A DNA stretch of 64,000 nt from Candidatus Beckwithbacteria bacterium (lineage in GTDB: Bacteria; Patescibacteriota; Microgenomatia; UBA1400; CG1-02-47-37): positions 22,406 through 86,405 of the forward strand of contig JAZDKF010000027.1 of the NCBI GenBank assembly GCA_043803225.1. The letters run 5' to 3'. The notes under the pieces are model-generated. The model was not told the DNA's origin, did not search any database, and saw only the letters and a program-made list of their open reading frames with translations. This document shows, in pieces, positions 6,871-54,198 of this stretch. How positions within the stretch are numbered: the first letter of the stretch is position 1; each line of letters begins with the position of its first letter. The position numbers and the translations under genes were made by a program.

Positions 6871-8016
6871 ATGGTTTATGAAATATTGGCTAAATCAGAT
6901 AAACCAATGGAAGCCAAGTTAGAGTATTTATCGGCGATTCAGTCTGTTTTAGTGCCAGTTGGTGTTCAGGTAGGGGAAGGTTTAAAGCGTTATGGTTTGG
7001 AATTTGAGGTCGGGAGAACAGAAAAATTCGGTTTAGGTTTAGAAATAATAACCGCATCTCGATATAGAACGTGGCAGGAGTTTGGGGAATGGAAAGGGAA
7101 GGTAGTTGAAGGCAATAGTTGGCCGATTTTGTTAGTTTTGGGCGAAGGGATAAGCAGGGAGGCGGTAGGGAGTTTAAAGATAGACGAGTATGAAAGGTTT
7201 GCTGGAGAACAAGTTCCGGGAGGCCTAAATATTGAAAGGACAAACGATAGGGGAACAAAAAATACTTTATTATCGGCGAGCGTTGAAGCGAGAAGTGGAG
7301 AAGAATGGCATTTAAGAAGAAATGACAGGAATGGATTTTATGCAGTGTCGGTTAACCCTCGGTTGCTCGGAGACAGGAATGAAGTGAGGGTGTTGGCTTT
7401 GCTGTATCAACGAAAAGGTGACGGTTTGCAAATTATTCCATTTTCAGTGGAGACAACCGGCCAATTATTATGGCGATTGAAGACTATTAACTTATTTACC
7501 AGTTTAAATGAGGTGAAAGCAAGAATAGAGGTAGAAACAAAACCAGCAACTGTAAAAGCAAACAGGTTGGTGGATTTGAGCGAAGTCTGGTTGCCTGAAG
7601 GGTATGAATTTTTTGAAGCGGTTAGAGAAATTTTAAAAGCGGGTCCAGATGAATGGGTAAGAGACGGGGTGGTAGGAGAAAAATATAATGTTTCATGGGT
7701 GGATGCTCAAGGTCAGCCGGCAGTAACAGGAAAAGCGCATAAGGCGGGATATTTTGATAAAGAAAAAGTAGTTACCACTCATATTGCAGTGGAGATCGAG
7801 CAAGTTTCAGGATCGGCATTAACGGAAAGAAGGTTGAAATTGGCGGATTCCAAAGATGAGACGGTTAGGGTGAAAATTTTCCTATTGACAGATGGAACGA
7901 TAAAGATGGGAGTAGGCGAGTCTATGAGGGAAATTAAAGAGGTTGGGGAGAAAAAGTTTTGGAAAGCGGTATTAATGCAAATGAGGATTAGTAGTATTAG
8001 TCGAAACCGGCGGTGA
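6871..8016 (+). CDS. Hypothetical protein (381 aa, cysteine-free).
   Basis: Long ORF immediately downstream of the previous one, with an RBS-like 'aggag' upstream. No known motif recognised. Confidence 0.35.
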   Translation: MVYEILAKSDKPMEAKLEYLSAIQSVLVPVGVQVGEGLKRYGLEFEVGRTEKFGLGLEIITASRYRTWQEFGEWKGKVVEGNSWPILLVLGEGISREAVGSLKIDEYERFAGEQVPGGLNIERTNDRGTKNTLLSASVEARSGEEWHLRRNDRNGFYAVSVNPRLLGDRNEVRVLALLYQRKGDGLQIIPFSVETTGQLLWRLKTINLFTSLNEVKARIEVETKPATVKANRLVDLSEVWLPEGYEFFEAVREILKAGPDEWVRDGVVGEKYNVSWVDAQGQPAVTGKAHKAGYFDKEKVVTTHIAVEIEQVSGSALTERRLKLADSKDETVRVKIFLLTDGTIKMGVGESMREIKEVGEKKFWKAVLMQMRISSISRNRR

Positions 8017-9870: not shown

Positions 9871-10290
9871 ATGAAACAGAAAGTAGAAACAACCAAAGCG
9901 CCGAAAGCAATGGGGCCTTATTCCCAGGCGATAACCGTGGGTAATTTGGTGCTGACTTCCGGGCAGATTCACTTAACCGCAGAGGGGAAATTGTTAAAGG
10001 GGACAATTGAAGCACAGACGCATCAAGTAATGAAAAATTTAGGAGCGGTTTTAGACGCAGCCGGAGTGAGTTTTAAAGAGGTGGTGAAGGCAACAATTTA
10101 TGTGACGGACATGGCGATTTACGGAAAGATTAACGAAGTTTATGGCAGTTATTTTTCGGAGCCATTTCCGGCCAGAGAAACAGTTCAAGCAGCAGCTTTA
10201 CCATTAGGGGCAGAGGTGGAAATCAGCTTGGTAGCGGTGAAGAAAGATTGTTGCAGTGAAGATAATCAAGGAGGCTGTTGTTGTAGTTAA
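9871..10290 (+). CDS. ridA: RidA/YjgF (reactive intermediate deaminase) family protein with a Cys-rich C-terminal tail.
   Basis: 'KAPKAMGPYSQAI...TSGQI' and the overall YjgF pattern. An extra C-terminal 'KKDCCSEDNQGGCCCS' is present. Confidence 0.7.
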   Translation: MKQKVETTKAPKAMGPYSQAITVGNLVLTSGQIHLTAEGKLLKGTIEAQTHQVMKNLGAVLDAAGVSFKEVVKATIYVTDMAIYGKINEVYGSYFSEPFPARETVQAAALPLGAEVEISLVAVKKDCCSEDNQGGCCCS

Positions 10291-10312
10291 ATAAATTAAT
10301 AAATAACAATTT

Positions 10313-10338
10313 AACCTCCTTAAATAGGAGGTTTTTTT
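10313..10338 (+). terminator. Rho-independent terminator whose 3' arm doubles as the Shine-Dalgarno of the next gene.
   Basis: 'aacctcc' / 'ggaggtt' stem with a 7-nt loop and a 'ttttttt' run. 'aggagg' lies 8 nt before the ATG at 10339. Confidence 0.5.
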
Positions 10339-10692
10339 ATGATCAAAATTATTGAAATTACCAAATTAAAACCGCATGAGCGGATTAGAAAAATTCATGC
10401 CAGAAAATTATTAAGGCAAATTATTATTGACGGCCGGTTAAAGAAGCCGATTATTGTTGATGGGAAAACAGGGGTAATTCTTGACGGCCATCACCGTTTT
10501 TGGGCAATTGGGCAGTTGGGTTTAAGCGGTATTCCTGCAAGAATAGTGAATTATCAAGATAAAAATATACAAGTAATTGCGTGGAGAAAAGGAGAGAAAA
10601 TTTCCAAAAGTGAAGTAATCAGAGCCGGAATGACAGGAAAGTTGTTGCGGCCGAAAACTTCCAGACATTTAATTCCTAAGGAACGATTATGA
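10339..10692 (+). CDS. Small ParB/Srx-fold protein (ParB-like nuclease/sulfiredoxin superfamily).
   Basis: 'KLKPHERIR...DGHHR' is a ParB/Srx-type motif (compare Srx 'GCHR', DUF262 'DGQQR'). 117 aa. The stop overlaps the start of the following cysteine synthase gene (ATGA). Confidence 0.45.
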   Translation: MIKIIEITKLKPHERIRKIHARKLLRQIIIDGRLKKPIIVDGKTGVILDGHHRFWAIGQLGLSGIPARIVNYQDKNIQVIAWRKGEKISKSEVIRAGMTGKLLRPKTSRHLIPKERL

Positions 10693-11561
10693 AAAATTTA
10701 TTACAAACAATCGGCAAGACGCCTATGGTGAAACTGGAAAGATATTCCACTAAGCGAGTTAAGATTTTTGCCAAACTGGAAGGCAATAATCCGGGCGGGT
10801 CAATTAAAGACAGGATTGGTTTGCGGATGGTCGAAGAGGCGGAAAAGAAAGGAATAATTCAGGGAAGGGAGTTATTGGAGGCGACCAGCGGCAACACCGG
10901 AATTGCTTTAGCGATGATTTCGGCGATTAAGGGATATAAATTTACCGCAGTAATGCCGGAGAGCGTGAGTTTAGAAAGGCGGAAATTATTGACCGCCTAT
11001 GGGGCGAAAATTATTCTGACAGACGGAGCCAGAGGTACTAATTATGCTATTAAAGTGGCTAAAGAAATAATGAAAGAGAATAAAGATAAATACTTGATGC
11101 TGAACCAGTTTGAAAATAAGGCAAATGTTTTGGCTCACTTTGAAACTACCGGCAGGGAGATTATTGAACAGCAGCCGGAAATAACTCATTTTGTGGCGGG
11201 AATGGGCACGGGCGGGACATTGATGGGCGTGGGGAAAAGATTGAAAGAGTTTAAGGCAAATATTCAAATAATCGGAGTTGAACCAAGAGCCGGGTCCAAA
11301 ATACAGGGCTTAAGAAATATGAAAGAGTATGTGCCCAAGATTTTTAAGGAAAAAAGGCTGGATAAAAAACTAGTAATAAAAGAAGATAAGATTGCGTTTG
11401 AGTTAATGAAGGATTTATTTAAAAAAGAAGGTTTATCGGTAGGAATTTCTTCCGGGGCCGGGCTTTGGGGAGCGATGGAGACAGCGAAAAAAATTAAAAA
11501 AGGAATAATTGTGACTATTTTTCCAGACAGGGGAGACAGGTATCTAAGCAATTGGCTATAA
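10689..11561 (+). CDS. cysK: PLP-dependent cysteine synthase family (CysK/CysM; O-acetyl- or O-phosphoserine sulfhydrylase).
   Basis: 'NPGGSIKDRIG' carries the PLP-Lys. 'SGNTGIALA' and 'GTGGT' loops are typical of the tryptophan-synthase-beta superfamily CysK/CysM. Confidence 0.75.
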   Translation: MKNLLQTIGKTPMVKLERYSTKRVKIFAKLEGNNPGGSIKDRIGLRMVEEAEKKGIIQGRELLEATSGNTGIALAMISAIKGYKFTAVMPESVSLERRKLLTAYGAKIILTDGARGTNYAIKVAKEIMKENKDKYLMLNQFENKANVLAHFETTGREIIEQQPEITHFVAGMGTGGTLMGVGKRLKEFKANIQIIGVEPRAGSKIQGLRNMKEYVPKIFKEKRLDKKLVIKEDKIAFELMKDLFKKEGLSVGISSGAGLWGAMETAKKIKKGIIVTIFPDRGDRYLSNWL

Positions 11562-11569
11562 TTTAACTA

Positions 11570-11923
11570 ATGAAAGTATCAGTGTTTGGGAATAAAGATT
11601 TAATCGAAGACAGGGCGGCAGTGGAGTTAATTCCGTGGCTGAAAAATAAATATCCGAAGGCGGAGATTAAAATTGAAGATCCAACTGAAGGATTGAAGCC
11701 GCCGGAAGACGGCAATTGGGTAGTGGTGGATGCGTGCCAAGGAATTAATAAAATAACCGAGTTTGATAATTTAGACCAGTTTGAAGCGAAAAGAAGAGTT
11801 TCGGTCCATGACTATGAAGTGGTGATGGAATTGAAGTTGATATTGAAGCTAGGCAAAGTGAAAAGCTTAAAGGTAATCGGGGTGCCGATGAAAGTTATTC
11901 GTCCGGGGTCTGGCCAAAAATAG
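11570..11923 (+). CDS. [NiFe]-hydrogenase maturation endopeptidase-like protein (HycI/HybD family, short form).
   Basis: 'VFGNKDLIEDRAA' (GN...[DE] metal ligand), 'VVVDAC' (DA motif), 'SVHDY' (His ligand) and a C-terminal 'VIGVP' (compare 'lIGVe'/'GIQP'). Spacing is similar to HycI/HybD. Confidence 0.45.
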   Translation: MKVSVFGNKDLIEDRAAVELIPWLKNKYPKAEIKIEDPTEGLKPPEDGNWVVVDACQGINKITEFDNLDQFEAKRRVSVHDYEVVMELKLILKLGKVKSLKVIGVPMKVIRPGSGQK

Positions 11924-12524
11924 TAATGGTGGTGCCGGGGTTGTCAGCTGACGCATAGATGCTGCGCTGGCCCTGCAGATCGGGTTGGGCCCAATAAAAG
12001 AGCTGGGCAACTTCTTCGGTTTTCATATTAATACAGCCGTGAGACATGGGGTGGCCGAAGTTGTCATGCCAGTAAGTGCCGTGAAGACCAAAACCGCGGG
12101 ACTTGGGAACTTCATCGCTATAAAAGAACATGGTGTAGGGGACATTGGGGAGGTAGTAGTAGGTATTTAGGGCTTTGGAACCGCCTTCCATTTTAGTATA
12201 GCGAAGCTTGGTCCAGATTTGAAAAGTGCCGGTGGGAGTCCGACCCCATTTTCCGGAAGAAATCAGAAAGTTATAAACAAGATTATTGTCTTCGTAGGCA
12301 TAGAGGCGTTGATTAGTCAGATCGATCTCGATTCTTTTATCAGCAGTGTTTTGACCCAGAACTATAGGTGGAAGGGTGTCGGTTTGAGCCAGGGGAGAAG
12401 ATACAGTCAGATTATTGAAAATTGCCTGAGGCGGAGTGGGATCAAAATCAGCGGAGAGGTGATTAAGGTCGAGGTTTTTTTGGCGGGAAAAAAGCAGGGT
12501 TAAAAAGACGATGAAGAGTTTCAT
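11895..12524 (-). CDS. L,D-transpeptidase (YkuD domain), secreted.
   Basis: Catalytic 'HGTYWHDNFGHPMSHGCINM' (His...SHGC). Start placed at 'MKLFIVFLTLLFS' (signal peptide). The ORF track allows 12569. Confidence 0.7.
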   Translation of the reverse strand: MKLFIVFLTLLFSRQKNLDLNHLSADFDPTPPQAIFNNLTVSSPLAQTDTLPPIVLGQNTADKRIEIDLTNQRLYAYEDNNLVYNFLISSGKWGRTPTGTFQIWTKLRYTKMEGGSKALNTYYYLPNVPYTMFFYSDEVPKSRGFGLHGTYWHDNFGHPMSHGCINMKTEEVAQLFYWAQPDLQGQRSIYASADNPGTTITIFGQTPDE

Positions 12525-13828
12525 TGCTTCCAGTTTATCTTTAAAAAGTGGGAGGCACAACTCATACAAGGATCATAAGCCCTGATTAAGACTTCGATTT
12601 CGTGTTCAAGTTCGGCCTTGAGGTTAGCGTTAAGGGTTTGGTTTTTGAGTTTGTTTTCAACCAGAATTTTGATGTCGTTTTGGATGTTTAGCTGGTTTTG
12701 GCCGGTGGGAACCAGGATTTCTGCATCTTTAACCAGATGATTTTCAATCGAGAGGTGGTGGTAGAGAATTCCCCGGGGAGCTTCAACTACACCGAAGCCT
12801 TCTCCGGAAGAGAGCTGGGATTTAACTAGGGGTTCGGGTTGGAATTTAGCTGAGGGGAGAATGGATAAAGTGTCGTCGATGGCATTTAAGATTTCAATAG
12901 CTTGGGCGAGATTGTTGTGATAGAGGTTGTGGGAGGGAAAAAGTTTTAAAGCAGCAGCAGCGCCGACTTTGGTTTGAGAATTTAAGGAGTTTTTATTGAG
13001 ATTGATTCGAGCCAGAGCGCCAGTAAAGTAAGGTCGGTCTTTATAGGTATAGGCAGAAGCCTGGGAGTACGGCAGGGCAAGGTGGTGGAGTTGGGAGCGG
13101 TAGTTATTTTGATGAATGCAGAGGCCGTCAGAACTGCAGATTTCACCGACAAGGTAAGAATAGTCGGGGTTTTTGTGGGATAAGTAGGGAGTGGAATGAG
13201 TTTGGGTTAAAGGGCAGTCGGCAAAGATGTGGATTAATTTTAAGACGGCCGGTCTGACAGCCTGGAATTTGGCAATGACTGGTTGGATGGTTTGGGGGTT
13301 GGGAAGCTGAGTAAAGCCGCCAACCTGGGGCAGGGGGGCATGGACCGAGCGGCCGCCGGCAAGGATAGAGAGTTGGTTGCCGGCATCTTTGACGTCAAAA
13401 GCATCGTGGACCAGCTGATGTTGTTTAGGGTCAGAGTCGTTAAAGTCTAAAAGGGAGTTCTTTTGAAATAAATCGGGAAGGACAAAGAGGTAAAGATGGA
13501 GGGCATGGTCGCGGATGATCAGGCCGTTGATAATCAGACGACGCAGGAGCATAGTTTGAGCCGAGGGGGTAATTTTTAAAGCGTTTTCCACGGCTTCAAT
13601 CGCGGCGAGGATATGGGCGTTGCTGCAGGTGCCGCAGATGCGGGCGAGAAGGGTAGGGGCGGCCAGGGCGGCTTTGCCGACAACTGCCTGAGTGTAGAAG
13701 CGTTTGTATTCGGTAATTTTAAAGTGGCATTTGGTGACTTGGCCATCCTGGATGGATAGGTCCAAACCAGCAGCACCCTCGATTTTGGAGATTTCTTCAA
13801 GTGATAGGTCTAAATTTATTTGATGCAT
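12521..13828 (-). CDS. [NiFe]-hydrogenase large (catalytic) subunit.
   Basis: N-terminal 'RICGTCSNAH' (RxCGxCxxxH) and C-terminal 'DPCMSCASH' (DPCxxCxxH) Ni-Fe ligand motifs. An 8-residue extension ('FLKINWKQ') follows the His, consistent with endoproteolytic maturation. Confidence 0.75.
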   Translation of the reverse strand: MHQINLDLSLEEISKIEGAAGLDLSIQDGQVTKCHFKITEYKRFYTQAVVGKAALAAPTLLARICGTCSNAHILAAIEAVENALKITPSAQTMLLRRLIINGLIIRDHALHLYLFVLPDLFQKNSLLDFNDSDPKQHQLVHDAFDVKDAGNQLSILAGGRSVHAPLPQVGGFTQLPNPQTIQPVIAKFQAVRPAVLKLIHIFADCPLTQTHSTPYLSHKNPDYSYLVGEICSSDGLCIHQNNYRSQLHHLALPYSQASAYTYKDRPYFTGALARINLNKNSLNSQTKVGAAAALKLFPSHNLYHNNLAQAIEILNAIDDTLSILPSAKFQPEPLVKSQLSSGEGFGVVEAPRGILYHHLSIENHLVKDAEILVPTGQNQLNIQNDIKILVENKLKNQTLNANLKAELEHEIEVLIRAYDPCMSCASHFLKINWKQ

Positions 13829-14286
13829 AATTTATTTATTAATTCGATAAATTTTATTTCGTCCATGGGGCAGCCAGGGACAGAGTAGTCAACGGTAACC
13901 AAGTCGGAAAGTTTATGAACCTGATCGCTGTATTGAAATTTTTCTAAGATTGGTTGAATTTGGGCTTTTTGGTCGGGATTGAAAAGATTTCTTTGAGCCG
14001 AGGGGTGACCGGTGACAGCACAGGAACCGATGGCGACTAAGGTTTTAGCCAAAGAACGGATGATTTTTAATTTTTCGGCATCTTTATCCGAGGAGATAGC
14101 CCCCTCAATAAAAGCAACATCCATTAGGTCTAAAGGGGGAGATTTTCTTAAAGCCTTGGCGTATTTAAAGTCAATTTTAGAAGTCCAGTCCTGCCAATGC
14201 TGGTTTAAAATTTCGAGCATTAAAATGGTTGAGTCTTCAGAACAGGTAAAAGTAAACCAACCAACAGTGAGCTTTCTCATTGACAT
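13816..14286 (-). CDS. [NiFe]-hydrogenase small subunit, short NuoB-like form (proximal 4Fe-4S only).
   Basis: 'GSCAVTG' (GxCAxxG) and 'VPGCPM' (GCPP) motifs. The N-terminal ligand motif is 'TCSED', where NuoB-type subunits have 'CCxxE' and groups 1-3 have 'CxGC'. 156 aa. Overlaps the large-subunit start by 13 nt. Confidence 0.55.
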   Translation of the reverse strand: MSMRKLTVGWFTFTCSEDSTILMLEILNQHWQDWTSKIDFKYAKALRKSPPLDLMDVAFIEGAISSDKDAEKLKIIRSLAKTLVAIGSCAVTGHPSAQRNLFNPDQKAQIQPILEKFQYSDQVHKLSDLVTVDYSVPGCPMDEIKFIELINKLCIK

Positions 14287-17863: not shown

Positions 17864-18244
17864 ATGTTAAAGATTTCCAGAGAGTTAGATTTGGGGCTGC
17901 TGTTAATGAGCGAGCTTTATGGAAAAAAAAGCTTAAGTTTGTCAGGGTGGGCAAAAGAAAAAAAACTGCCTTATAGATTTTTATGCAAGATTGCCGGGAA
18001 GTTGAAGCGAGCTGGACTAATTAAGAGTCGGGAAGGAAGAAGCGGCGGCTATTATTTAACCCGGAAGATAGGAGTGGGGGAGATTTTTAAGGCGATTGAA
18101 GGAGAGATAGCACCAGTGGCTTGTTTACAGGGAAAACAGTGTGCGGCGGCGAAGTTTTGCAAGCAGAAGAAGCTGCTAGAGTTTTTAAGCCGGGGAATAG
18201 AGAAGGAGTTAAATAACTTAAGCTTGGAGCAACTATGCTGTTAG
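17864..18244 (+). CDS. Rrf2-family (IscR/SufR-like) transcriptional regulator.
   Basis: 'MLKISRELDLGLLLM' plus 'LCKIAGKLKRAGLIKSREGRSGGYYLTR' winged-HTH typical of Rrf2. Cys residues lie downstream ('VACLQGKQCAAAKFC'). Confidence 0.65.
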   Translation: MLKISRELDLGLLLMSELYGKKSLSLSGWAKEKKLPYRFLCKIAGKLKRAGLIKSREGRSGGYYLTRKIGVGEIFKAIEGEIAPVACLQGKQCAAAKFCKQKKLLEFLSRGIEKELNNLSLEQLCC

Positions 18245-18999
18245 AGGTTGTCAACTTAAAAGTTAAGGCAGAAGGGAAAGAAGTATTAAAAGGGGTAAAT
18301 TTACAGGTGGGGGTTGGGGAGACGGTGGCTTTAATGGGGCCAAACGGCAGCGGGAAAAGCAGTTTAGCTTACAGTTTGTTGGGACTGCCTAATTATCAAG
18401 TGAGTGAGGGAAGGGTGAGTTTGGAGGGAAAGGATTTGTTTAAAATGTCAGTAACCGAACGAGCCAAAATAGGTTTGTTTTTGGGCTGGCAGCAGCCAAT
18501 CGGAGTCAAGGGTGTCAGTTTGGAGCAGTTGCTGAGAACAGCGGTAATGAGCTGCAAGAATGCGGCTTGTGAGCGGACGGGACAGGCGAAAAAATGTTTC
18601 CAACTGGATGAGTTTAGAAGAGAGTTGAACAGGAAAGTTAAGCTGTTAAAGATTGAACCAAATTGGTTAAACCGGTCGATAAATGTGAAGTTTTCCGGCG
18701 GGGAAAAGAAAAAACTGGAAGTACTGCAGCTGTTAATGTTAAAGCCAGCTTTGGCGATCTTAGATGAGCCGGATTCAGGCTTGGACATTGATAGTTTGCG
18801 GGTAGTCAGCCGGGGGATTGTTGAGGCAAAAAAAGAAAACCCAAAACTAGGATTATTACTGATTACTCATTATCAACGGCTGTTAAAGCAGGTAAAACCA
18901 GACCGGGTGGTGGTAATGAAGGCGGGGCAGATAGTTAAAGAGGGAGGGTTAGAATTGCTGGTGAGGTTGGAAAAGGAGGGGTATGCAGGGTTTGAATAG
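18235..18999 (+). CDS. sufC: SufC Fe-S cluster assembly ATPase.
   Basis: Walker A 'GPNGSGKSSL', signature 'FSGGEKKK' and Walker B 'ILDEPDSGLD'; ~250 aa. Confidence 0.8.
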   Translation: MLLEVVNLKVKAEGKEVLKGVNLQVGVGETVALMGPNGSGKSSLAYSLLGLPNYQVSEGRVSLEGKDLFKMSVTERAKIGLFLGWQQPIGVKGVSLEQLLRTAVMSCKNAACERTGQAKKCFQLDEFRRELNRKVKLLKIEPNWLNRSINVKFSGGEKKKLEVLQLLMLKPALAILDEPDSGLDIDSLRVVSRGIVEAKKENPKLGLLLITHYQRLLKQVKPDRVVVMKAGQIVKEGGLELLVRLEKEGYAGFE

Positions 19000-20308
19000 A
19001 GCAGTAGTTGAAGTGATTTCTAAACAAAAACAAGAGCCGGCGTGGATGAGGCAGAAGCGGTTTGAAGCCTTAGAGGTGTTTGAAAAAGCGGCTTGGCCGA
19101 GGTTTGGGATTGATCAAAAAGAGCTTGATTTGGAGAAAATAAATTATTTTAACAGTCCAAAAGATTTAAAAAAGAAAAACTGGAGTCAAGTCGATAAAAA
19201 GATAAAAAAAACTTTTGAGCGGCTGGGAATTCCCCAGGCAGAAAGACGGGTGTTGGCCGGAGTCGGAGCCCAATGGGACAGTACAATGGTTTATCAGAAT
19301 TTTAAGCAAAGACTAAAAAAGCAGGGAGTGGTTTTTGGCGATATGGATGAAGCAGTAAAAAAGTATCCGCGGCTGGTTAAAAAATATTTTATGACCCAAG
19401 CGGTAACCATCAATAACAACAAGTTCAGCGCGCTTCACGGAGCAGTGTGGAGCGGAGGCAGTTTTGTTTATGTGCCCAAAGGGGTAAAGGTTAAAGAGCC
19501 GGTGCAGGGATATTTTTGGCTGAATTTAGAGCGCGGCGGACAGTTTGAACATACTATAATAATTGCCGAAGCAGGGGCGCAAATTCATTATATTGAAGGC
19601 TGTAGCGCGCCGAAGTATTCGAGCCAGGCGTTACACAGCGGAGTGGTGGAGATTTTTGTGGGAAAAGGGGCGAAAGTCAGGTATTCAACCATACAGAACT
19701 GGACTAAAAATATTTACAATTTGGCAACCAAGCGGGCAATCGTGGAAACAGACGGAACAATGGAGTGGGTGTCGGCTAGTTTGGGAAGCAAGCTAACCAT
19801 GGTTTATCCCTGCAGTGTGTTAAAAGGCGACCGGGCGAAGAGCGACCATTTAAGTTTAAGTTTAGCGGGCAAGGGGCAGGTGTTGGATACAGGCGGCAAG
19901 GTAATTCATGCGGGTAAAGATACCGGTTCGAATATTGTATCTAAGTCGATCAGCCAGGCCGGTGGCAAAACTGTTTACCGAGGATCAGTGAAGATTTTAC
20001 CAGGGGCAAAAGGGGCTAAAAGTTCTGTTTCCTGCGAGTCATTGATTTTAGATAAACGAAGCCAGGCGGTGACAGTTCCTAAAATGGAGGTTTTAGAGAA
20101 CGAGGTGGTAGCCATGCACGAAGCGAAAACCGGAAAGATAGCTGAAGAGGAATTAAATTATTTAATGAGCCGGGGGTTAGCTGAAGCCGAGGCGATGGCA
20201 ATGATTGTGAACGGGTTTATGGAGCCGGTGGTGAAACAGCTGCCTTTAGAATATGCAGTGGAAATGAACCGGCTGATTGAGATGGAGATGGAAGGGAGCG
20301 TGGGATGA
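18983..20308 (+). CDS. sufB: SufB/SufD family Fe-S cluster assembly scaffold (single sufBD-type gene).
   Basis: Beta-helix-type repeat region with conserved 'GSF...VPKG' and a C-terminal helical domain. Lies immediately after sufC. Confidence 0.65.
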   Translation: MQGLNRAVVEVISKQKQEPAWMRQKRFEALEVFEKAAWPRFGIDQKELDLEKINYFNSPKDLKKKNWSQVDKKIKKTFERLGIPQAERRVLAGVGAQWDSTMVYQNFKQRLKKQGVVFGDMDEAVKKYPRLVKKYFMTQAVTINNNKFSALHGAVWSGGSFVYVPKGVKVKEPVQGYFWLNLERGGQFEHTIIIAEAGAQIHYIEGCSAPKYSSQALHSGVVEIFVGKGAKVRYSTIQNWTKNIYNLATKRAIVETDGTMEWVSASLGSKLTMVYPCSVLKGDRAKSDHLSLSLAGKGQVLDTGGKVIHAGKDTGSNIVSKSISQAGGKTVYRGSVKILPGAKGAKSSVSCESLILDKRSQAVTVPKMEVLENEVVAMHEAKTGKIAEEELNYLMSRGLAEAEAMAMIVNGFMEPVVKQLPLEYAVEMNRLIEMEMEGSVG

Positions 20309-20334
20309 TAGAATATAACTTGTTTATTACTCGA

Positions 20335-20404
20335 CAAACAAAATTTTCTGCGTGCTCACAGCTATCTGACTGAATCAGATGAGACGCTGCGCGCGCAAAA
20401 ATTT
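20335..20404. repeat. Copy 2 of the conserved hairpin element, in the sufBD-sufS intergenic spacer.
   Basis: 'caaacaaaattttctgcgtgctcacagctatctgactgaatcagatgagacgctgcgcgcgcaaaaattt'. Nearly identical to copy 1. Confidence 0.7.
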
Positions 20405-20426
20405 ATTTGTCTCGTTAAACCTACCT

Positions 20427-21638
20427 ATGCTAAACATTAAACAAATTAAAAAAGATTTCCCGATTCTTTCCAGAAAAATTAACGGGAAGCGGTTGGTGTA
20501 TCTGGACAATGCGGCGACGAGCCAGCGGCCGATTCAAGTAATTAAAGCAGTGCAAGATTTCCAAAAAAAACATAATGCCAATGTCCATCGGGGATTACAC
20601 AGTTTATCAGAAGAGGCCAGCGAGCGATATGAAAAGGCCAGAGAGATAGTGGCAGAGTTTATTGGCGCCAGGGCAGACGAGCTGATTTTTGTTAAAAATA
20701 CGACTGAAGCGATTAACTTGGTTGCTTGGGCTTGGGCAAGAAAGCAGGTGAGAGAAAAAGGAGAAATTTTAACTACCATAATGGAGCATCACAGCAACCA
20801 ACTGCCGTGGCAGCAGCTGGGCAGGGAAGTGAAATTTGTCAATGTAACTGAAGAAGGAATTTTAGATATGAAAGACCTGGAAAGAAAGTTAAGTAAAAAA
20901 ACTAAGCTGATAGCCGTAGGGCAGATGTCCAATATGACCGGAACGATTAATCCTCTGGAAAGAATAATTAAATTGGCTAAAAAAGCCGGGGCGAAAGTTT
21001 TGATTGATGGAGCTCAAGGCGTTCAACATGTGGGAATAGATGTTAAAAAAATCAACGGTGATTTTTTGGCTTTTTCCGGACATAAGATGCTGGGGCCGAT
21101 GGGAATCGGGGCTTTGTATATTAAGAAAGAGCGGCAGGAGGAAATGGAGGTATTTTTAACCGGTGGGGGAATGATTTCAGAAGTTTATATTGACAAGCCG
21201 GCAGTTTGGGCCAAGGGGGTGGAAAAATGGGAAGCGGGAACGCCGAACGTGGAGGGGGCAGTGGGGCTGGCGGCGGCCTGCGAGTACCATCAACGCCTGG
21301 GTATGAAATATATCCGGCAGCATGAAAAAGAATTAACGGCTTATGCTTTAAAAGAATTGTCAAGATTTAAAGAAATTAAAATTTACGGACCGAAAAACGT
21401 GGAGATAAGAGGCGGAGTAATCAGCTTTACTTTTAAGGGTATTCATGCCCATGATGTGGCTCAAATTTTGGACAGCGAAGGGGTGGCGGTCAGATCCGGA
21501 CATCACTGCACTCAGCCATTGCACCGGAGGTTTGGATTGGCGGCGACAACCAGAGCCAGTTTTTATATTTATAATGATAAAAAAGACGTGGATAAATTAA
21601 TCGAAGGATTATTAAAAGTTAAACAGGTATTTAAATAA
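20427..21638 (+). CDS. sufS: Cysteine desulfurase (SufS-type, class V aminotransferase).
   Basis: 'SGHKMLGPMG' (PLP-Lys) and 'RSGHHCTQPL' (SufS active-site Cys loop). Start set at 'MLNIKQIKKDF'; the ORF-track start at 20379 lies inside the repeat element. Confidence 0.8.
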   Translation: MLNIKQIKKDFPILSRKINGKRLVYLDNAATSQRPIQVIKAVQDFQKKHNANVHRGLHSLSEEASERYEKAREIVAEFIGARADELIFVKNTTEAINLVAWAWARKQVREKGEILTTIMEHHSNQLPWQQLGREVKFVNVTEEGILDMKDLERKLSKKTKLIAVGQMSNMTGTINPLERIIKLAKKAGAKVLIDGAQGVQHVGIDVKKINGDFLAFSGHKMLGPMGIGALYIKKERQEEMEVFLTGGGMISEVYIDKPAVWAKGVEKWEAGTPNVEGAVGLAAACEYHQRLGMKYIRQHEKELTAYALKELSRFKEIKIYGPKNVEIRGGVISFTFKGIHAHDVAQILDSEGVAVRSGHHCTQPLHRRFGLAATTRASFYIYNDKKDVDKLIEGLLKVKQVFK

Positions 21639-21664
21639 ACAAGGTTCGTAACCTTGTTTAATAT

Positions 21665-22030
21665 ATGGATATATATAGGCAAGAAATACTGGATCATTTT
21701 AAACATCCGCGGAACTTTGGAGAATTAACCAAAGCGACGCATAAAGCAATGGATCGAAATGCCAGTTGCGGGGATGTTTTGGAGATGAGTTTGAGGGTAG
21801 AAAAAGGCAAGGTGGTAGAAGTTAAGTTTAAAGGCGAGGGTTGCGCAGTGTCGATGGCCGGGGCAAGCATGCTGACAGAAATGATTAAAGGTAAAAAAGC
21901 AGTAGAGATAATGAAGCTGGGGGATAAAGATATCGAAAGAATGTTGAAGATAAAAATTAGTCCGGCGAGAAAAAAGTGCGCCGGGTTAGGATTAGTGGTA
22001 TGTCAAAAATCACTCTTAACAGCAATTTAG
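21665..22030 (+). CDS. sufU: SufU/IscU-like Fe-S scaffold or sulfur acceptor.
   Basis: 'HFKHPRNFG', 'ASCGDVLEMSLRV' and 'KGEGCAVSMAGASM' match the NifU/IscU/SufU signature with three Cys. Confidence 0.7.
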   Translation: MDIYRQEILDHFKHPRNFGELTKATHKAMDRNASCGDVLEMSLRVEKGKVVEVKFKGEGCAVSMAGASMLTEMIKGKKAVEIMKLGDKDIERMLKIKISPARKKCAGLGLVVCQKSLLTAI

Positions 22031-23036: not shown

Positions 23037-23606
23037 ATGATAAGTAATGAAATAATTAGGGCTGCAGAAGGTCAATGTGATTGGCACCGCGCTGATCATG
23101 GTTTTCGAACAATGTTTTTAGGAGGGGAAATATTTGAATTAGAGCTGGTTACAGCTCCGGAAGAAGTGAAACAAAATCCGAATTATTTTAGAGAAGTATT
23201 AAATTGGACGGCGGTATTACATGATCGGGAGATGCCAATGACAGATAAATATGATTTTACTCATGGGAAAAAAGCTGCCGACCGGGTGGATGAGATTATT
23301 GGGGAAGCGGTTAGCCCAGAGGGGAGAGAGTTAATAAAGTTTTTGTGTGAATTTCATGTTCCGGATGATAGCGAGATTACGGGGTTAACTGACACACAAA
23401 GGTGGTTGCTAAGCGTGTTTAAAGATGCAGATGCTTTAGATCGGGTGAGATTTGATAATGGCGACACTTTGGATAAAAGTCATCTTAGGTTTGGCAGTAG
23501 TAGAGAATTGATTCCACAAGCCCAGGAGTTATGGGAAAGAACTAAACAAGGGCTTGATTCACCTCAAGCAGCTTTTGACGCTGTGTTTGGAAATAGGGTA
23601 GAATGA
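23037..23606 (+). CDS. Hypothetical protein (possible HD-like hydrolase).
   Basis: 189 aa with scattered H/D residues ('VLHDRE', 'FHVPDD') but no clear motif. Confidence 0.3.
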   Translation: MISNEIIRAAEGQCDWHRADHGFRTMFLGGEIFELELVTAPEEVKQNPNYFREVLNWTAVLHDREMPMTDKYDFTHGKKAADRVDEIIGEAVSPEGRELIKFLCEFHVPDDSEITGLTDTQRWLLSVFKDADALDRVRFDNGDTLDKSHLRFGSSRELIPQAQELWERTKQGLDSPQAAFDAVFGNRVE

Positions 23607-24310
23607 TTTTTATGGCAGCAGTGCAACAATACTTAGCCAAAGTAAATGAACACTTTGCTTATAATGAGAAGTACCATTGTTTTAAGTTTGAATTAGTGAA
23701 ACCAGCTTTACTGGAGTTCTTGGCCGGACAATATATTTCCATTGAAGTCGGGGAGGGATTGAGGCGGTCATATTCAATAGTGAATCAGCCGAGCGTGAAT
23801 CACATGGTGGAGCTGTGTGTGGATGTTTTGCCAGATGGGAAAGGAACTGGCTACTTAAAGAATTTAAAACCAGGCGATGAGGTTAAGTTTTTAGCACCTT
23901 TGGGTATTTTCAAGGCAGAGCAGGAAAGCAAGCTGTTGTTTATGGCAACCGGCTGCGGAATTGCACCGATTAAAAGCATGCTGTTTGATTTGTTGGAAGA
24001 TAAAAAAGATACAAGACAGATGGTTTTGGTTTGGGGATTAAGACACGCAGAGGAGATGTTTTGGGAAGAAGAGCTGAGGCGGCTGGAAGAGTATTATAAA
24101 AATTTTAAATTACAGATAATTTTAAGCCAACCGCCGGAGAAGTGGCCGCTTCCAGCCGGGCATATAACCGATTATATTAAAACTGAAATGAGTTTGGATA
24201 AAGGTTGGGGAATATATCTTTGTGGCAGCAGGGAGATGGTGGAGGAAGGGAAGGTGTTGGTTGAGAGTTTGGGCGTACCTAAAGAACAAATTCATTTTGA
24301 AAAATTTTAA
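23603..24310 (+). CDS. Ferredoxin-NADP reductase (FNR)-like FAD/NAD(P)-binding oxidoreductase.
   Basis: 'RRSYSIVN' (RxYS FAD motif) and 'MATGCGIAPIKSM' (NAD(P)-binding GxGxxP). No C-terminal 2Fe-2S Cys cluster. Confidence 0.6.
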   Translation: MIFMAAVQQYLAKVNEHFAYNEKYHCFKFELVKPALLEFLAGQYISIEVGEGLRRSYSIVNQPSVNHMVELCVDVLPDGKGTGYLKNLKPGDEVKFLAPLGIFKAEQESKLLFMATGCGIAPIKSMLFDLLEDKKDTRQMVLVWGLRHAEEMFWEEELRRLEEYYKNFKLQIILSQPPEKWPLPAGHITDYIKTEMSLDKGWGIYLCGSREMVEEGKVLVESLGVPKEQIHFEKF

Positions 24311-24324
24311 GGAGGTGTATTTTT

Positions 24325-24552
24325 ATGGCAAAGTATAAGATTAAAATCATCAAGGATAAGTGCATTGGTGCGGCCGCCTGCGCGGGAATTGCGCCGAATA
24401 CTTATAAGCTGGATGAGAATAACATTGCTTATGTCTTGAGCGAAGACGGGGACTCGGCAGAGAATGTTTTACTGGGGGCGCAGAGCTGTCCGACGAATGC
24501 AATTGAGATCTATGACGTTCAAACCAATGAGAAAGTTTGGCCGAAAGAGTAA
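24325..24552 (+). CDS. Small single-cluster ferredoxin.
   Basis: 'DKCIGAAACAGIAP...SCPTNAI' resembles Pyrococcus-type 3Fe/4Fe-4S ferredoxins (CxxxxxC...CP). Confidence 0.65.
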   Translation: MAKYKIKIIKDKCIGAAACAGIAPNTYKLDENNIAYVLSEDGDSAENVLLGAQSCPTNAIEIYDVQTNEKVWPKE

Positions 24553-48054: not shown

Positions 48055-48492
48055 ATGACAGACCTGCCCGATGATTCACAACAGAAACCGCCAGCGCCAC
48101 CGATAATAACCGGCCAGCCGGTAGGAGGGAAGGAAAGAGTTGATAATAAGCCCGCCGCAGCTGAGAGCTCTGGCGAGGCGAAGCAAGAAGAAACGCCGGT
48201 AACTGAGTTTACCCGGAATATAGATTTGGAACCGGAAGTGGAGGGCTGGCTGGAAAAGGTGGAAAAAGAAGACAGCCAAGCGCCTCAAGCGATCAAAGAT
48301 GATAAAGGTCAGGTAGTGCTGGATGATACGGCTCAGCCAGGGGCGGGTTTTAAAGTCGTGTTACCTTTGACTAAAGATGAAGTCGATAAAGGGTTGCAGC
48401 ATAAAGTGCTGGATAGCATCAGGTGGCTGGCAGAGTGGTGTATCAGAATGGTAAAGATGTTTGGCAGTAAAGTTGCCTACAGGAGAAAATAA
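48055..48492 (+). CDS. Pro/Glu-rich hypothetical protein, translationally coupled to the downstream ATPase.
   Basis: 145 aa with a low-complexity N-terminal half. TAATG overlap with the next gene. Confidence 0.3.
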   Translation: MTDLPDDSQQKPPAPPIITGQPVGGKERVDNKPAAAESSGEAKQEETPVTEFTRNIDLEPEVEGWLEKVEKEDSQAPQAIKDDKGQVVLDDTAQPGAGFKVVLPLTKDEVDKGLQHKVLDSIRWLAEWCIRMVKMFGSKVAYRRK

Positions 48493-50822
48493 TGGATAAA
48501 GTAACCATATTAATTGAACAAGCCAAGTATTTACTCTTAATTGCTTTTCTCTTAGGAATAGGCATGGTGATGTTGGCGGGTTTAGGTTATGTGGTGATCC
48601 ACTGGCTGAAGTTTAAGGATCGGGAGAAAAGATCTTTGGAGTTTGTCGTCTTGCAAATAGCCGTACCCAGAGATAATGAAGTGAAAATTGACGGTGCCGA
48701 GCAAATGTTTGCCTCGCTTTTCAGCGTGAAGAAAGGCGGCGGCCTGTTTAAATTTTTAAAGCCCCAGGATCATTTAAGCTTTGAGATTGTGGCTAAAAAA
48801 GAAGATATCAGGTTTTATGTATCGATTCCTAATAAATTGAAAGATTTGGTAGAAAAACAAATTCACGGAACTTACCCGGGTGCAGATGTCAGAGAAGTGG
48901 ACGAGTACAATATTTATGCCGACCACGGCAAGGTGGCGTTTGCGGCGATGAAACTAGGCAGCGCCTCGCATTTTCCGATTCAGATTTACAAGGATTTGCC
49001 GACGGATCCGTTAAGCTCAATTACTTCCGGACTGGCGAAAATGGGGGAAAACGAAGGGGCGGTAATGCAGGTGTTGATTTCGCCGGCGGATAACAAATGG
49101 CAGAAGTCCGGCCGGTCGTATATTGCCAAAACGAAAAAAGCCGAGGCAGATCCGGAGACGGCTAAATACACAGTGGACCCGAAAACTTATGAAGAAATTG
49201 AGAATAAGTGTTCAAAGCCGGGGTTTGAAACCACGATCAGAATGGTGGTGTCGTCCACGACCAAAGAATCAGCCGAGGCGCATTTGTCCAACCTGACTTC
49301 GGCTTTTTCCCAGTTTAATTCTGACCATAACAGTTTTACCAAGATGAAGATCAGGCTGAAAAAACTATTTATGATTGATTTTATTTACCGGTATCAGCCG
49401 CTGTTCGGATCAAAAAGCATTTTGTCGACCGAAGAATTGGCAACGATTTATCACTTTCCCAATAAGAGTATTGAGACGCCGCATATTTATTGGTTGAATG
49501 CCAAACGGGCGCCGGCGCCGGCTTTGATTCCGAAAGAAGGTTTATTTTTAGGCAAGAGCGTTTACCGGGGAGTGACCCGGCCGGTATATATTAGCGAGGA
49601 CGACCGGTTGAGGCACACCTATATTATTGGGAAGACCGGGGTGGGAAAGTCGGAGCTTTTAATTGAGATGATTATGCAGGATATCCGGGCCGGCAAGGGA
49701 GTGTGTTTTATTGACCCGCATGACACAGTCGAAAAGATTTTGGAAATGATTCCGCCGGAACGGGCAGAGGACGTAATTTACTTTAATCCTTCAGATACAG
49801 AAAGACCGCTGGGGCTTAATATGCTGGAGGCAAGAACTGAAGAAGAAAAACACTTTGTGACGACTTCAATCGTGGGTTTGATGTACAAGCTTTATGATCC
49901 GCACAAAACCGGAATTATCGGGCCGCGGTTTGAACACGCGATCAGAAATGCAATGCTGACAGTGATGAGCGAGCCGGGGAATACGTTTGTGGAAGTGGTC
50001 CGGGTGTTAACCGATGCCAAGTATGTGCAGGAGCTGCTGCCGAAAGTGACTGATCCGATGGTCAGACGATACTGGACTGACCAGATTGCCCAGACTTCGG
50101 ACTTCCATAAATCAGAAGTGTTGGACTACATTGTTTCCAAGTTCGGCCGGTTTGTGACTAATAAGATGATGAGAAATATAATCGGCCAGTCAGAAAGTGC
50201 GTTTAATTTTAGAAAAGTAATGGATGAGGGGAAGATTTTACTGATTAATTTAGCCAAGGGGAGAATTGGGGAAGAGAACAGCCAATTTTTAGGCCTGATT
50301 TTAGTGCCGAAGATTTTGATCGGGGCGATGAGCCGGCAGGATATTCCGGAAGAGCAGAGAAAGCCGTTTTATTTATATGTAGACGAGTTTCAGAATTTTG
50401 CCACGCCGGATTTTGCTCAGATTTTATCCGAGGCGAGAAAGTTTGGTTTGGCGTTGACAGTAGCGAATCAGTTTATCGGCCAAATGGAGGAGGAAGTCAA
50501 GAACGCGATTTTTGGCAACGTGGGAACTTTAATCTCCTTTCGGGTCGGAGTAAATGATGCTAATTATCTGCAGCATGAGTATCAACCGGTGTTTTCCGAA
50601 ACAGATTTGATTAATATTGAACGGTTTAATGCCTACATTAAAACTTTGGTTCATAATGAGCCGGCGCAGCCGTTTTCTTTGGATCTGACAAAAGATATGA
50701 GCAAGGCAAAAGAGGAGAGAAGCCTGAAGATGGCAGAGATGGTGAAACAGCTGTCCAGGTTAAAGTATGCCCGGGACTTGCGGGTGATTGAGGCGGAAAT
50801 TAGCCAGCGGTCGAAGTTGTAA
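48492..50822 (+). CDS. Membrane-anchored FtsK/HerA-superfamily P-loop ATPase of VirB4/TraC- or VirD4-like (T4SS/conjugation-type) architecture.
   Basis: N-terminal TM 'LLLIAFLLGIGMVMLAGLGYVVIHWL', a ~330 aa middle domain, Walker A 'HTYIIGKTGVGKS' followed by 'CFIDPHD', and Walker B 'FYLYVDEFQNF'. 776 aa, in the VirB4 size range. Confidence 0.45.
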   Translation: MDKVTILIEQAKYLLLIAFLLGIGMVMLAGLGYVVIHWLKFKDREKRSLEFVVLQIAVPRDNEVKIDGAEQMFASLFSVKKGGGLFKFLKPQDHLSFEIVAKKEDIRFYVSIPNKLKDLVEKQIHGTYPGADVREVDEYNIYADHGKVAFAAMKLGSASHFPIQIYKDLPTDPLSSITSGLAKMGENEGAVMQVLISPADNKWQKSGRSYIAKTKKAEADPETAKYTVDPKTYEEIENKCSKPGFETTIRMVVSSTTKESAEAHLSNLTSAFSQFNSDHNSFTKMKIRLKKLFMIDFIYRYQPLFGSKSILSTEELATIYHFPNKSIETPHIYWLNAKRAPAPALIPKEGLFLGKSVYRGVTRPVYISEDDRLRHTYIIGKTGVGKSELLIEMIMQDIRAGKGVCFIDPHDTVEKILEMIPPERAEDVIYFNPSDTERPLGLNMLEARTEEEKHFVTTSIVGLMYKLYDPHKTGIIGPRFEHAIRNAMLTVMSEPGNTFVEVVRVLTDAKYVQELLPKVTDPMVRRYWTDQIAQTSDFHKSEVLDYIVSKFGRFVTNKMMRNIIGQSESAFNFRKVMDEGKILLINLAKGRIGEENSQFLGLILVPKILIGAMSRQDIPEEQRKPFYLYVDEFQNFATPDFAQILSEARKFGLALTVANQFIGQMEEEVKNAIFGNVGTLISFRVGVNDANYLQHEYQPVFSETDLINIERFNAYIKTLVHNEPAQPFSLDLTKDMSKAKEERSLKMAEMVKQLSRLKYARDLRVIEAEISQRSKL

Positions 50823-50862
50823 AGAGTTGATTTTCTTCTGGATTATCCTATAATGTCCGAAT

Positions 50863-51852: not shown

Positions 51853-51870
51853 TGGTAAAATACAGTTTAC

Positions 51871-51944
51871 AGGCCGGTAGCTCAGTTGGTTAGAGCGTCA
51901 AGCTTATACCTTGAATGTCGGAGGTCCGACTCCTCCCCGGCCTA
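51871..51944 (+). tRNA. tRNA with anticodon UAU (tRNA-Ile reading AUA); atypical T-loop.
   Basis: Manual cloverleaf: acceptor 'aggccgg'/'ccggcct', D-arm 'gctc..gagc', anticodon stem 'tcaag'/'cttga' with loop 'cttatac' (anticodon tat), T-stem 'ggagg'/'cctcc' with loop 'tccgact' (C at position 55). No encoded CCA. Confidence 0.6.
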
Positions 51945-51975
51945 CTCGTTTAATAATTTTCCTGCCCAAAAATTT

Positions 51976-53786: not shown

Positions 53787-53829
53787 ATCATGAGGTAAAA
53801 GTGTCTTATAATAACAATTAGGGGGATAG

Positions 53830-54198
53830 ATGTCAACGAGTAAAAAACGATTATTAGCGTATACCGTATTGGTTTTGAGTATATTAATGTCAATTAAGCT
53901 GGTTAAAGACATTGTTAAATTAAAGTCGGCTGACACCAGATTAACTGAGGCAGAAACAGAGTTTCAAGCAGCACAACAGGAACAGGCAGAATTGAAACAG
54001 CAGCTAATTGAGATTGAAGATAAAAGTTGGTGGGAAAAGCAAGTGAGAAATATTTTAAAAATGGCCAAACCGGAAGAGATTATTGTAGTAGTTCCGGACG
54101 AAGTGAAGAATAGCCGGGAGAGTCCAACAGAAGCTCAAAGTGAGGCAGTAACGGAGTTGCCAAATTGGCAGCAGTGGTGGCAGGTGGTAGTTGACTAG
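53830..54198 (+). CDS. FtsB/DivIC-like septum-formation initiator (TM plus coiled coil).
   Basis: N-terminal TM 'LLAYTVLVLSILMSI', a leucine-zipper-like 'QQEQAELKQQLIEIE' and 'WWEKQVRNILKMAKPEEII' resembling the FtsB gamma-domain. Confidence 0.4.
   Translation: MSTSKKRLLAYTVLVLSILMSIKLVKDIVKLKSADTRLTEAETEFQAAQQEQAELKQQLIEIEDKSWWEKQVRNILKMAKPEEIIVVVPDEVKNSRESPTEAQSEAVTELPNWQQWWQVVVD

Follow-up and report, generated by a model that had tools for sequence, protein, structure and literature searches.

[NiFe]-hydrogenases related to group 3b occur in bacteria of the candidate phyla radiation (CPR), and were divided into two clades, hyd1 and hyd2, by Jaffe et al. 2020 (BMC Biol 18:69, PMC7304191). 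The passages of that paper that deal with hyd2, which it calls CPR-specific, describe a long tree branch, a small subunit that is consistently truncated (mean length 164 amino acids), no consistent proximal genes for beta or gamma subunits on the same strand, and a hypC-like gene family close by. Flavoproteins of family PF07992 and iron-sulphur (Fe-S) proteins are reported there near a subset of hyd2 genes, and the function is given as "uncertain". Here we describe a gene pair of this kind, hydS and hydL, in 64,000 nucleotides of a Candidatus Beckwithbacteria genome (assembly GCA_043803225.1, contig JAZDKF010000027.1, positions 22,406 to 86,405; hereafter, the window).

The window enzyme is very probably a further member of the hyd2 clade. 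Its host is a CPR bacterium, its large subunit is related to group 3b, its small subunit is truncated to 156 amino acids, adjacent beta and gamma genes are lacking, and a HypC-like gene is found in its context. Since the window fits the published description (PMC7304191) on all testable points, the class is not new. Relatives include Roizman- and Chisholmbacteria genomes, which are of the kind analysed by Jaffe et al. Nothing essential distinguishes the window enzyme from hyd2 as those passages present it; they do not mention the CC/CS motif, the HycI-like, DUF6390 and EamA genes, or the archaeal members considered below. A first-pass annotation of the window had proposed a minimal two-subunit [NiFe]-hydrogenase of an unusual type. 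The two-subunit architecture holds, in that every open reading frame (ORF) it named lies where it was placed and both subunits have Pfam matches, and the apparent novelty is accounted for by hyd2. A literature search found no later paper on hyd2. The CC/CS ligand switch, the HoxY/HydS-like fold, the six-gene module, the HypC-like domain of DUF6390 and the operonic ferredoxin and reductase are unreported in the searchable literature.

Relatives of the window hydrogenase are encoded by at least 557 GTDB species genomes, and it is very probable that the window pair is a hyd2-type [NiFe]-hydrogenase under selection. At the Pfam E-values obtained, chance is no concern for the gene identities (Table 1). 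For comparative work, ORFs were clustered from 89 loci, consisting of the window, loci found by exact-protein look-ups, and the best 80 loci of the at least 557 genomes; the 88 fetched loci total 1.35 Mb. Counts of gene proximity refer to genes within 5 kb of hydL in the 77 distinct loci that hold the large subunit.

Table 1. Genes of the hyd2 locus, candidate redox partners and intervening genes, by position in the window
Feature	Position	Strand	Basis or remark
hypC-like chaperone, 65 aa	8029-8226	+	Pfam HupF_HypC, 30.1 bits (cutoff 28.5)
EamA/DMT-family transporter, 303 aa	8204-9115	+	Pfam EamA in related loci; overlaps hypC and DUF6390 genes
DUF6390 protein, 263 aa	9069-9860	+	Pfam DUF6390
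RidA, inserted between DUF6390 and hycI-like genes	9871-10290		
ParB/Srx-like protein, 117 aa	10339-10692		'DGHHR'; no Pfam match
PALP/CysK enzyme	10689-11561		
hycI-like maturation endopeptidase, 117 aa, divergent	11570-11923	+	Pfam HycI matches in the family
YkuD L,D-transpeptidase, insertion downstream of hydL, outside the system	11895-12569	-	Pfam YkuD
hydL, group-3b-related [NiFe] large subunit, 435 aa	12521-13828	-	Pfam NiFeSe_Hases, E 3.7e-30
hydS, small subunit with proximal cluster only, 156 aa	13816-14286	-	Pfam Oxidored_q6, E 8.5e-18
NAD(P)H:ferredoxin reductase, FNR type, 235 aa (candidate)	23603-24310	+	Pfam FAD_binding_6, NAD_binding_1
Partner ferredoxin, single cluster, 75 aa (candidate)	24325-24552	+	Pfam Fer4_13, Fer4_15

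Large and small subunits

The hydL product has the features of a PF00374 large subunit (RxCGxCxxxH and DPCxxCxxH/R, with four Ni-Fe cysteines). Its L1 motif is RICGTCSNAH and its L2 motif DPCMSCASH, and the latter is followed by an 8-residue C-terminal tail, FLKINWKQ, so that the annotation of both Ni-Fe motifs and a short cleavable tail was sound. Among relatives, L1 is present in 82 of 82 large subunits and L2 in 81 of 82, and the tail after the final histidine measures 7 residues in 60 of 81. In NCBIfam and PDB sequence comparisons, hydL is most similar to group 3b references: the best NCBIfam models are ShyA (219 bits) and HydA (206 bits), ahead of FrhA (114) and VhuA (86), with scores far under the equivalog cutoffs of 700 (ShyA) and 880 (HydA). 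The best PDB sequence match is the alpha subunit of Pyrococcus furiosus soluble hydrogenase I (SHI), a group 3b sulfhydrogenase (9nez, 9e15), which is the closest solved large subunit and aligns end to end (9nez_D, E 1.4e-56, residues 3-430). The SHI alpha precursor also ends in a short tail, of 4 residues after the histidine as opposed to 8 in the window, and the 9e15 chain has 424 rather than 428 amino acids, which is consistent with removal of the tail.

Unlike hydSL, SHI is a heterotetramer. Group 3b enzymes have small subunits of ~240-260 amino acids with three clusters, and adjacent genes for beta (Fe-S) and gamma (FAD/NADP) subunits; no genes of beta or gamma type lie beside hydSL in the window, and no such family is enriched in the 89 loci. 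The hydS gene overlaps hydL by 13 nucleotides, and its true start is possibly Met3, at 14280. Of the 261 residues of SHI delta, no more than the N-terminal ~150 align with its product (residues 2-149 in a profile alignment), which matches positions 3-153 of the 261-position NCBIfam HydD model. Because the alignment is confined to the N-terminal part of delta, the domain with the medial and distal clusters is absent. Thus delta carries three clusters and a CxxC motif, whereas hydS carries one cluster and the sequence C-S-E-D-S.

An AlphaFold2 model of hydS (predicted local distance difference test score, pLDDT, 93.8) was compared with solved structures by Foldseek. Its best matches are two small subunits of ~180 amino acids that hold the proximal cluster only, namely HydS of the electron-bifurcating HydABCSL (7t2r_E, template modelling (TM) score 0.86) and HoxY of an NAD+-reducing hydrogenase of group 3d (5xf9_C, TM 0.84). 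The N-terminal domain of SHI delta follows at 0.82, and complex I PSST/NuoB reaches 0.55-0.60. HoxY and HydS are permanently docked to HoxFU and HydABC, respectively, whereas no such genes accompany hyd2.

Judged by this model, the small subunit is HoxY/HydS-like in fold and not NuoB-like, contrary to its first description. Like hydS, NuoB/PSST and the group 4 small subunits have a single cluster, and they share a tandem-cysteine motif with the hyd2 consensus, CCEDS. This motif, found in relatives, is the extent of the NuoB likeness: fold similarity is lower, hyd2 is without membrane subunits, and in the window a serine replaces the second tandem cysteine. Also, hydS scores only 16 bits against the NCBIfam nuoB_fam model, whose cutoff is 143 (E 0.0065), and the HMMER alignment with NuoB is limited to the C-terminal GCP region.

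Proximal-cluster ligands

The hydS cysteines occur in three motifs: FTFT-C15-S16-E17-D18-S19, GSC89AVTG and GC139PM. The 120 closest database homologues all have the GxCA and GCPM motifs. Their first motif reads CCEDS in 89 sequences, CSEDS in 27, and CSQDS and CSTDS in one each, and two sequences are truncated at the N terminus. Among small subunits of GTDB and other loci (81 sequences), the motif reads CCEDS (66), CSEDS (10), CCEDN (3) or CCEGS (1), with one mismatch to the search pattern. C15, D18, S19, C89 and C139 are invariant in an alignment of 118 sequences, and D18 is nearly so overall. Position 16 is restricted to Cys or Ser over 199 sequences, and therefore behaves like a ligand position.

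The Ser16 codon, TCT, is one transversion from TGT. Because the C-S form occurs in 29 of the 120 homologues and 10 of the 81 loci, Ser16 is no sequencing error. A neighbour-joining tree of large subunits (71 sequences) requires a minimum of six switches between Cys and Ser at position 16, located in Beckwithbacteria, Gottesmanbacteria and branches with archaeal titles. We considered Cys154 as a replacement ligand and rejected it, as it is not enriched in proteins of the Ser16 type (6 of 29) relative to the Cys16 type (22 of 89).

HMMER places the canonical CxxC of SHI delta and of the Vhu small subunit at hydS positions 16 and 19. On this alignment, the family lost the second canonical cysteine, which is now Ser or Asn, and gained a cysteine immediately before the first. 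In the AlphaFold2 model a helix begins at D18, which would equally fit C15 and D18 in the canonical positions. A misalignment that conceals a standard four-cysteine cluster, as initially feared, is not what the comparison with SHI delta and Vhu reveals. One proximal-cluster cysteine is indeed missing, leaving three conserved cysteines and two candidates other than cysteine, S16 and D18.

In NuoB, cluster N2 is held by a first motif with tandem cysteines (CCxxE), an arrangement that the tandem Cys-Cys of this family resembles in sequence. Ligation by residues other than cysteine is known from the actinobacterial hydrogenase of group 1h, whose proximal cluster is of the 3Cys-1Asp type, and from the Asp-ligated ferredoxin of P. 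furiosus. Common to these and hydS are three cysteines with a conserved carboxylate (D18) or a hydroxyl (S16) nearby; group 1h is another hydrogenase group with another motif position, and ligation in hydS is only predicted. The window cluster could be held by Cys15, Cys89 and Cys139 together with an oxygen ligand, either Ser16 or Asp18, or could be a [3Fe-4S] cluster.

A conserved gene module

Among the gene families of the 89 loci, the large subunit is found in 82, the small subunit in 81, the HycI-like protein in 71, DUF6390 in 68 and EamA in 63. The HypC-like family is found in 38 loci, and the next family, present in 23, reflects lineage-specific synteny. Within 5 kb of hydL, the small subunit is present in 72 loci, the HycI-like protein in 64, DUF6390 in 60, EamA in 56 and HypC in 34. 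The hypC counts are too low because the ORF, of ~65 codons, is short.

The usual gene order has hydS and hydL on one strand, followed on the other by hycI-like, DUF6390, eamA and hypC (hydS> hydL> <hycI-like <DUF6390 <eamA <hypC). Metagenome-assembled genomes (MAGs) titled Woese-, Micr- and Burarchaeota have a second order (<DUF6390 <eamA hydS> hydL> ... <hycI-like). That the same genes recur in two independent orders is an argument for a functional link between them. In the window, hypC overlaps eamA, which in turn overlaps DUF6390. The RidA, ParB/Srx-like and PALP/CysK genes (9871-11561) form an insertion found in the window genome only; the latter two genes resemble what we take to be an archaeal serine-kinase/cysteine-synthase pair. 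A YkuD gene is found downstream of hydL only in the window and three other loci (L006, L010 and L013). The maturation genes, which had been described as scattered, are a copy of the conserved module that is disrupted by lineage-specific insertions, given that hypC, eamA, DUF6390 and hycI-like genes are conserved beside hydSL in most of the 77 loci.

The module is also present in MAGs whose titles name Woese-, Pace- or Micrarchaeota or Burarchaeum (L039, L040, L044, L046, L052, L063, L079, L083 and L087), and seven large subunits with archaeal titles form a separate branch on the tree. Pfam matches of the flanking genes on these contigs are not diagnostic of archaeal origin, and the archaeal assignment is that of the record title. 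Many GTDB records with the locus (L009, L010, L013, L014, L020-L022 and others) bear the title 'uncultured Gammaproteobacteria' or 'Pseudomonadales'. These titles look like placeholder misassignments, as the loci agree with those of Patescibacteria in gene content and synteny.

At one locus (L007:3732-9810), a DUF6390 gene and a HycI-like gene are found near each other, and no hydrogenase is encoded within 8 kb. Genes for NifS, NifU, a ferredoxin (Fer4_13/15) and a reductase (Pyr_redox_2) are next to the two, which flank an ORF of 156 amino acids that has no Pfam match and is not a small subunit.

Maturation proteins

The window HycI-like protein by itself has no Pfam match, and its match to the NCBIfam hydrogenase maturation protease model is weak (E 0.0044). 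In its family, HycI is the only Pfam match that recurs, in 47 of 66 members (best E 1.9e-6); G7, D14, D54, H80 and D81 are invariant in the 66 sequences. Alignment by hhalign with the canonical HycI of a standard cluster (L093) superimposes the GN(P)..D(D), D(A) and HD positions, which include all three ligands (E 0.0019). Searches of PDB sequences with profiles of the family returned no protease. On the family's Pfam matches and the invariant D14, D54 and H80, we accept the earlier reading of this gene, as a short, divergent HycI-type endopeptidase by its sequence features, which presumably removes the 8-residue hydL tail.

The gene annotated as a lone hypC is likewise confirmed. Its product begins with Met-Cys (MCLVVPLKV...) and matches NCBIfam hypC_hupF (E 5e-7) in addition to scoring above the Pfam cutoff, and it reads GDYLICQQD where canonical HypC has a conserved His. 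HypA, HypB, HypD, HypE and HypF are absent from the window, as first reported, according to a six-frame scan for hallmark motifs and Pfam searches of ~50 ORFs. Their hallmark motifs were also absent from the 88 related neighbourhoods, each of which is ~2% of a ~1-Mb genome, so that absence from the genomes does not follow. Pattern matches in L027, L080 and L065 lie outside retained ORFs and are due to chance. An ORF of 381 amino acids next to hypC (6871-8016) was rejected as a hidden Hyp protein, as it has no cysteines, no Pfam match and no relatives in the other loci. A literature search on hyp genes in genomes of CPR bacteria or DPANN archaea found nothing relevant.

DUF6390

The name DUF6390 is not mentioned in any paper of the searchable literature. 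C20, H119, H122, C145 and H232 are invariant in 119 homologues, and C7 and C237 are nearly so. The AlphaFold2 model (pLDDT 85) consists of a helical N-terminal domain, which holds C7, C20, H119 and H122, then a beta domain and a helix. The C-terminal part, which holds C145 and H232, appears to be an oligonucleotide/oligosaccharide-binding (OB) domain of HypC-like type.

Several comparisons point to HypC. Pfam HupF_HypC is matched by 45 of the 119 members (best E 4.2e-5, all under the gathering score), and the next family by 8. The top three PDB matches of a C-terminal profile are HypC proteins (3d3r, 2z1c and 3vyr), with weak E-values of 0.003-0.01. In the profile alignment, C145 falls on Cys2 of HypC, and GDLVTxHWGW on GDWVIVHTGF. 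An hhalign comparison of the domain with the neighbouring HypC-like proteins gave E 4.5e-4 with a probability of 33%. Foldseek searches with the whole model returned weak matches to OB folds (ribosomal S17), none at E <= 0.001.

DUF6390 thus appears to be a HypC-domain protein with an internal key cysteine. Like HypC, HupF and HybG, its C-terminal domain appears to have an OB-fold followed by a helix, and its 'C-x-x-x-x-G-x-V' aligns with 'C2-L-A-V-P-G-K-V'. Unlike in those proteins, the cysteine is not N-terminal but internal, following a 140-residue helical domain with Cys and His residues, and members of the family are also fused to helix-turn-helix (HTH) domains or EamA.

Among 1.84 billion representative proteins, 1466 clusters with DUF6390 were found, several of which are fusions. 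Those outside CPR involve EamA (P0241) and HTH domains of the PadR, XRE, GntR and ArsR types (among P0264, P0269, P0298, P0300 and P0336). The three HTH fusions that we looked up all stand first, or nearly first, in a transporter operon. The GntR fusion (L089) is directly upstream of an ATP-binding cassette (ABC) system whose binding protein belongs to the SBP_bac_1 family and whose ATPase contains TOBE_2, the PadR fusion (L091) is separated by one unannotated gene from a downstream SBP_bac_5 ABC system, and the ArsR fusion (L093) is directly upstream of a major facilitator superfamily transporter. NicO, HycI and HypA are encoded in L093, a standard [NiFe] cluster, and in L089 a standard small-subunit gene is 8 kb away. 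DUF6390 could bind a metal or cofactor intermediate for hydrogenase maturation, which would make it a candidate metal chaperone or sensor. This binding may be linked with transport, and in the HTH fusions with regulation.

Electron partner and proposed mechanism

No Fe-S, flavin or membrane-subunit family is conserved with hyd2 over the 89 loci. The first-pass statement that diaphorase, Fe-S and membrane-subunit genes are not adjacent to hydSL agrees with the six-frame motif scan and the Pfam searches of ~50 ORFs. It had also proposed a ferredoxin and an FNR-like protein elsewhere in the window as partners. This ferredoxin has only three cysteines, in the pattern C13-x2-A-x2-C19...C55-P, and the CxxAxxC...CP arrangement presumably denotes a [3Fe-4S] cluster.

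In two other loci (L048 and L065), genes for a Fer4_13/15 ferredoxin and a 414-residue Pyr_redox_2/Reductase_C flavoprotein are immediately upstream of hydS on the same strand as hydSL, with gaps of at most 15 nucleotides. A Pyr_redox_2 reductase abuts hydS in L064 and L082, and in L077, L084, L088 and L007 either the pair or a reductase alone is nearby (with the ferredoxin in L077 and L007). The window ferredoxin is homologous to those ferredoxins (E 1e-10 to 1e-15). FNR-type reductases are found near hydS in four loci, namely the window and L028, L015 and L013, at 1.5-10 kb in these three. Since two unrelated reductase types recur near hyd2 and the accompanying ferredoxins belong to one family, a dissociable chain of ferredoxin and reductase is the best-supported partner. 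The proposed window pair thereby gains indirect support: its ferredoxin has homologues that are operonic with hydSL, and the reductase in those operons is a different flavoprotein.

Our favoured reading is that hyd2 is a cytoplasmic heterodimer that is matured by the neighbouring module and coupled to ferredoxin and a reductase, to which we assign a probability of about 0.5. A catalytic subunit related to group 3b would pair with a HoxY-like small subunit in which the proximal cluster is the only one. The module would mature the enzyme through the HypC-like chaperone, the EamA transporter, DUF6390 and the HycI-type protease, the last by removing the 8-residue tail. Because medial and distal clusters and beta and gamma subunits are lacking, we infer that electrons pass directly from the single cluster to a small soluble ferredoxin, which would exchange them with NAD(P)H through a separate flavoprotein reductase, in the window the one of FNR type. 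The net reaction would be a reversible NAD(P)H/ferredoxin:H+ oxidoreduction that serves redox balancing in a fermentative cell. The ferredoxin-coupled mechanism in itself, which we draw from gene context and sequence, is at best an even bet.

Several points weigh against this reading. Hyd2 enzymes have no biochemically characterised member. A ferredoxin or reductase is adjacent in only ~10% of loci, and in the window the pair is 9.3 kb from hydSL, with unrelated genes between. The potential of a three-cysteine ferredoxin may be too high for efficient H2 evolution. The canonical ligand positions are 16 and 19 by alignment or 15 and 18 by the model, so that the assignment of cluster ligands is ambiguous. 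Furthermore, HypD, HypE and HypF, which were not found in the window or in the 1.35 Mb of related neighbourhoods, are described in a review as essential for the Fe(CN)2CO cofactor (PMC12134894), and should their absence be genuine, hydSL may not work as a hydrogenase.

Alternative explanations

The partner might be a protein other than ferredoxin, for example one of oxidative-stress defence like rubrerythrin, or one that is specific to CPR and so far unrecognised, with H2 used as a reductant and not produced. A rubrerythrin is encoded at 1132-1728 in the window, genes for superoxide dismutase (SOD) and a ferric reductase are close to the module in Beckwithbacteria relatives, and ferredoxin adjacency is confined to a minority of loci. 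Yet the rubrerythrin, SOD and ferric-reductase families are not conserved beyond close relatives, and among redox proteins only ferredoxin and flavoprotein reductases are repeatedly operonic with hydSL, so we consider another partner unlikely. It is distinctly doubtful that the conserved pair is not an active [NiFe]-hydrogenase at all, but has another metal site or a non-catalytic role in hosts without HypDEF. The failure to find HypA, B, D, E and F in the window, or their hallmarks in the 88 neighbourhoods, agrees with such an idea, but says little about the remaining ~98% of each genome. Moreover, hundreds of species conserve all four Ni-Fe cysteines with the surrounding residues of L1 and L2, as well as the tail and the protease, and the module retains HypC-type proteins.

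If the enzyme were a conventional group 3b (sulf)hydrogenase, tetrameric and coupled to NADPH, with its beta and gamma genes at another site in the genome, this would explain why ShyA, HydA and SHI alpha are the best matches of hydL, and the window FNR-like protein is weakly similar to NCBIfam HydG (E 7e-12) and ShyC (E 3e-8). Such a tetramer is improbable, however, given that hydS is without the C-terminal domain that wires delta to beta in SHI, that hydL scores less than a third of the ShyA cutoff, that beta and gamma families are not enriched in the neighbourhoods, and that the published account of hyd2 notes no consistent beta or gamma genes (PMC7304191). A regulatory H2 sensor, as opposed to an energy or redox enzyme, was among the first suggestions for this locus, and the small size, the lack of electron-transfer subunits and the unusual proximal cluster are in keeping with it. 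Large subunits of known sensors (group 2b) have no C-terminal extension and need no protease, whereas hyd2 conserves a tail of ~7-8 residues and a dedicated HycI-like gene. Both sequence and predicted fold are those of group 3, and the neighbourhoods conserve neither a kinase nor a regulator family. With the tail kept, a dedicated protease and no conserved signalling partner, a sensor role is very hard to credit.

Other features of the window

An Rrf2-SufC-SufB-SufS-NifU operon for Fe-S assembly is located at 17864-22030, 3.6 kb from hydS. The same juxtaposition is found in Beckwithbacteria-type loci (L001, L006, L014 and L015), and it may therefore be lineage synteny rather than a functional link. 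A possible integrated mobile element is located at 48492-53936, where a gene for a tyrosine integrase forms a cluster with genes for a Ser/Thr protein kinase and a TraG/VirD4-like coupling protein. GC skew is ~+0.3 in almost every 2-kb bin of positions 1-64000, with 0.08 in the first bin and 0.20-0.29 in several bins after 32 kb. This unusually strong asymmetry is independent of gene orientation, as it persists at 12-14 kb, where genes are on the minus strand.

Conclusions

With a catalytic subunit and a single-cluster subunit, hyd2 is perhaps the smallest natural [NiFe]-hydrogenase architecture, and it is widespread in ultra-small bacteria and, going by record titles, present in some archaea. 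If hypDEF genes are truly absent from hyd2 genomes, its maturation becomes a question of importance to the whole field. We consider it a long shot that hyd2-bearing CPR and DPANN organisms lack HypD, HypE and HypF and that hypC, eamA, DUF6390 and hycI form a self-contained minimal maturation system, in which DUF6390 replaces the HypCD scaffold and EamA imports a metal or cofactor precursor from the host. If true, organisms with ~1-Mb genomes would build the [NiFe] active site by a new route. The recurrent Cys/Ser ligand switch and the six-gene module with DUF6390 give concrete hypotheses for experiments, and hyd2 offers a compact scaffold for engineering. The partner and maturation needs of hyd2 would show how such reduced organisms dispose of, or gain, reductant.

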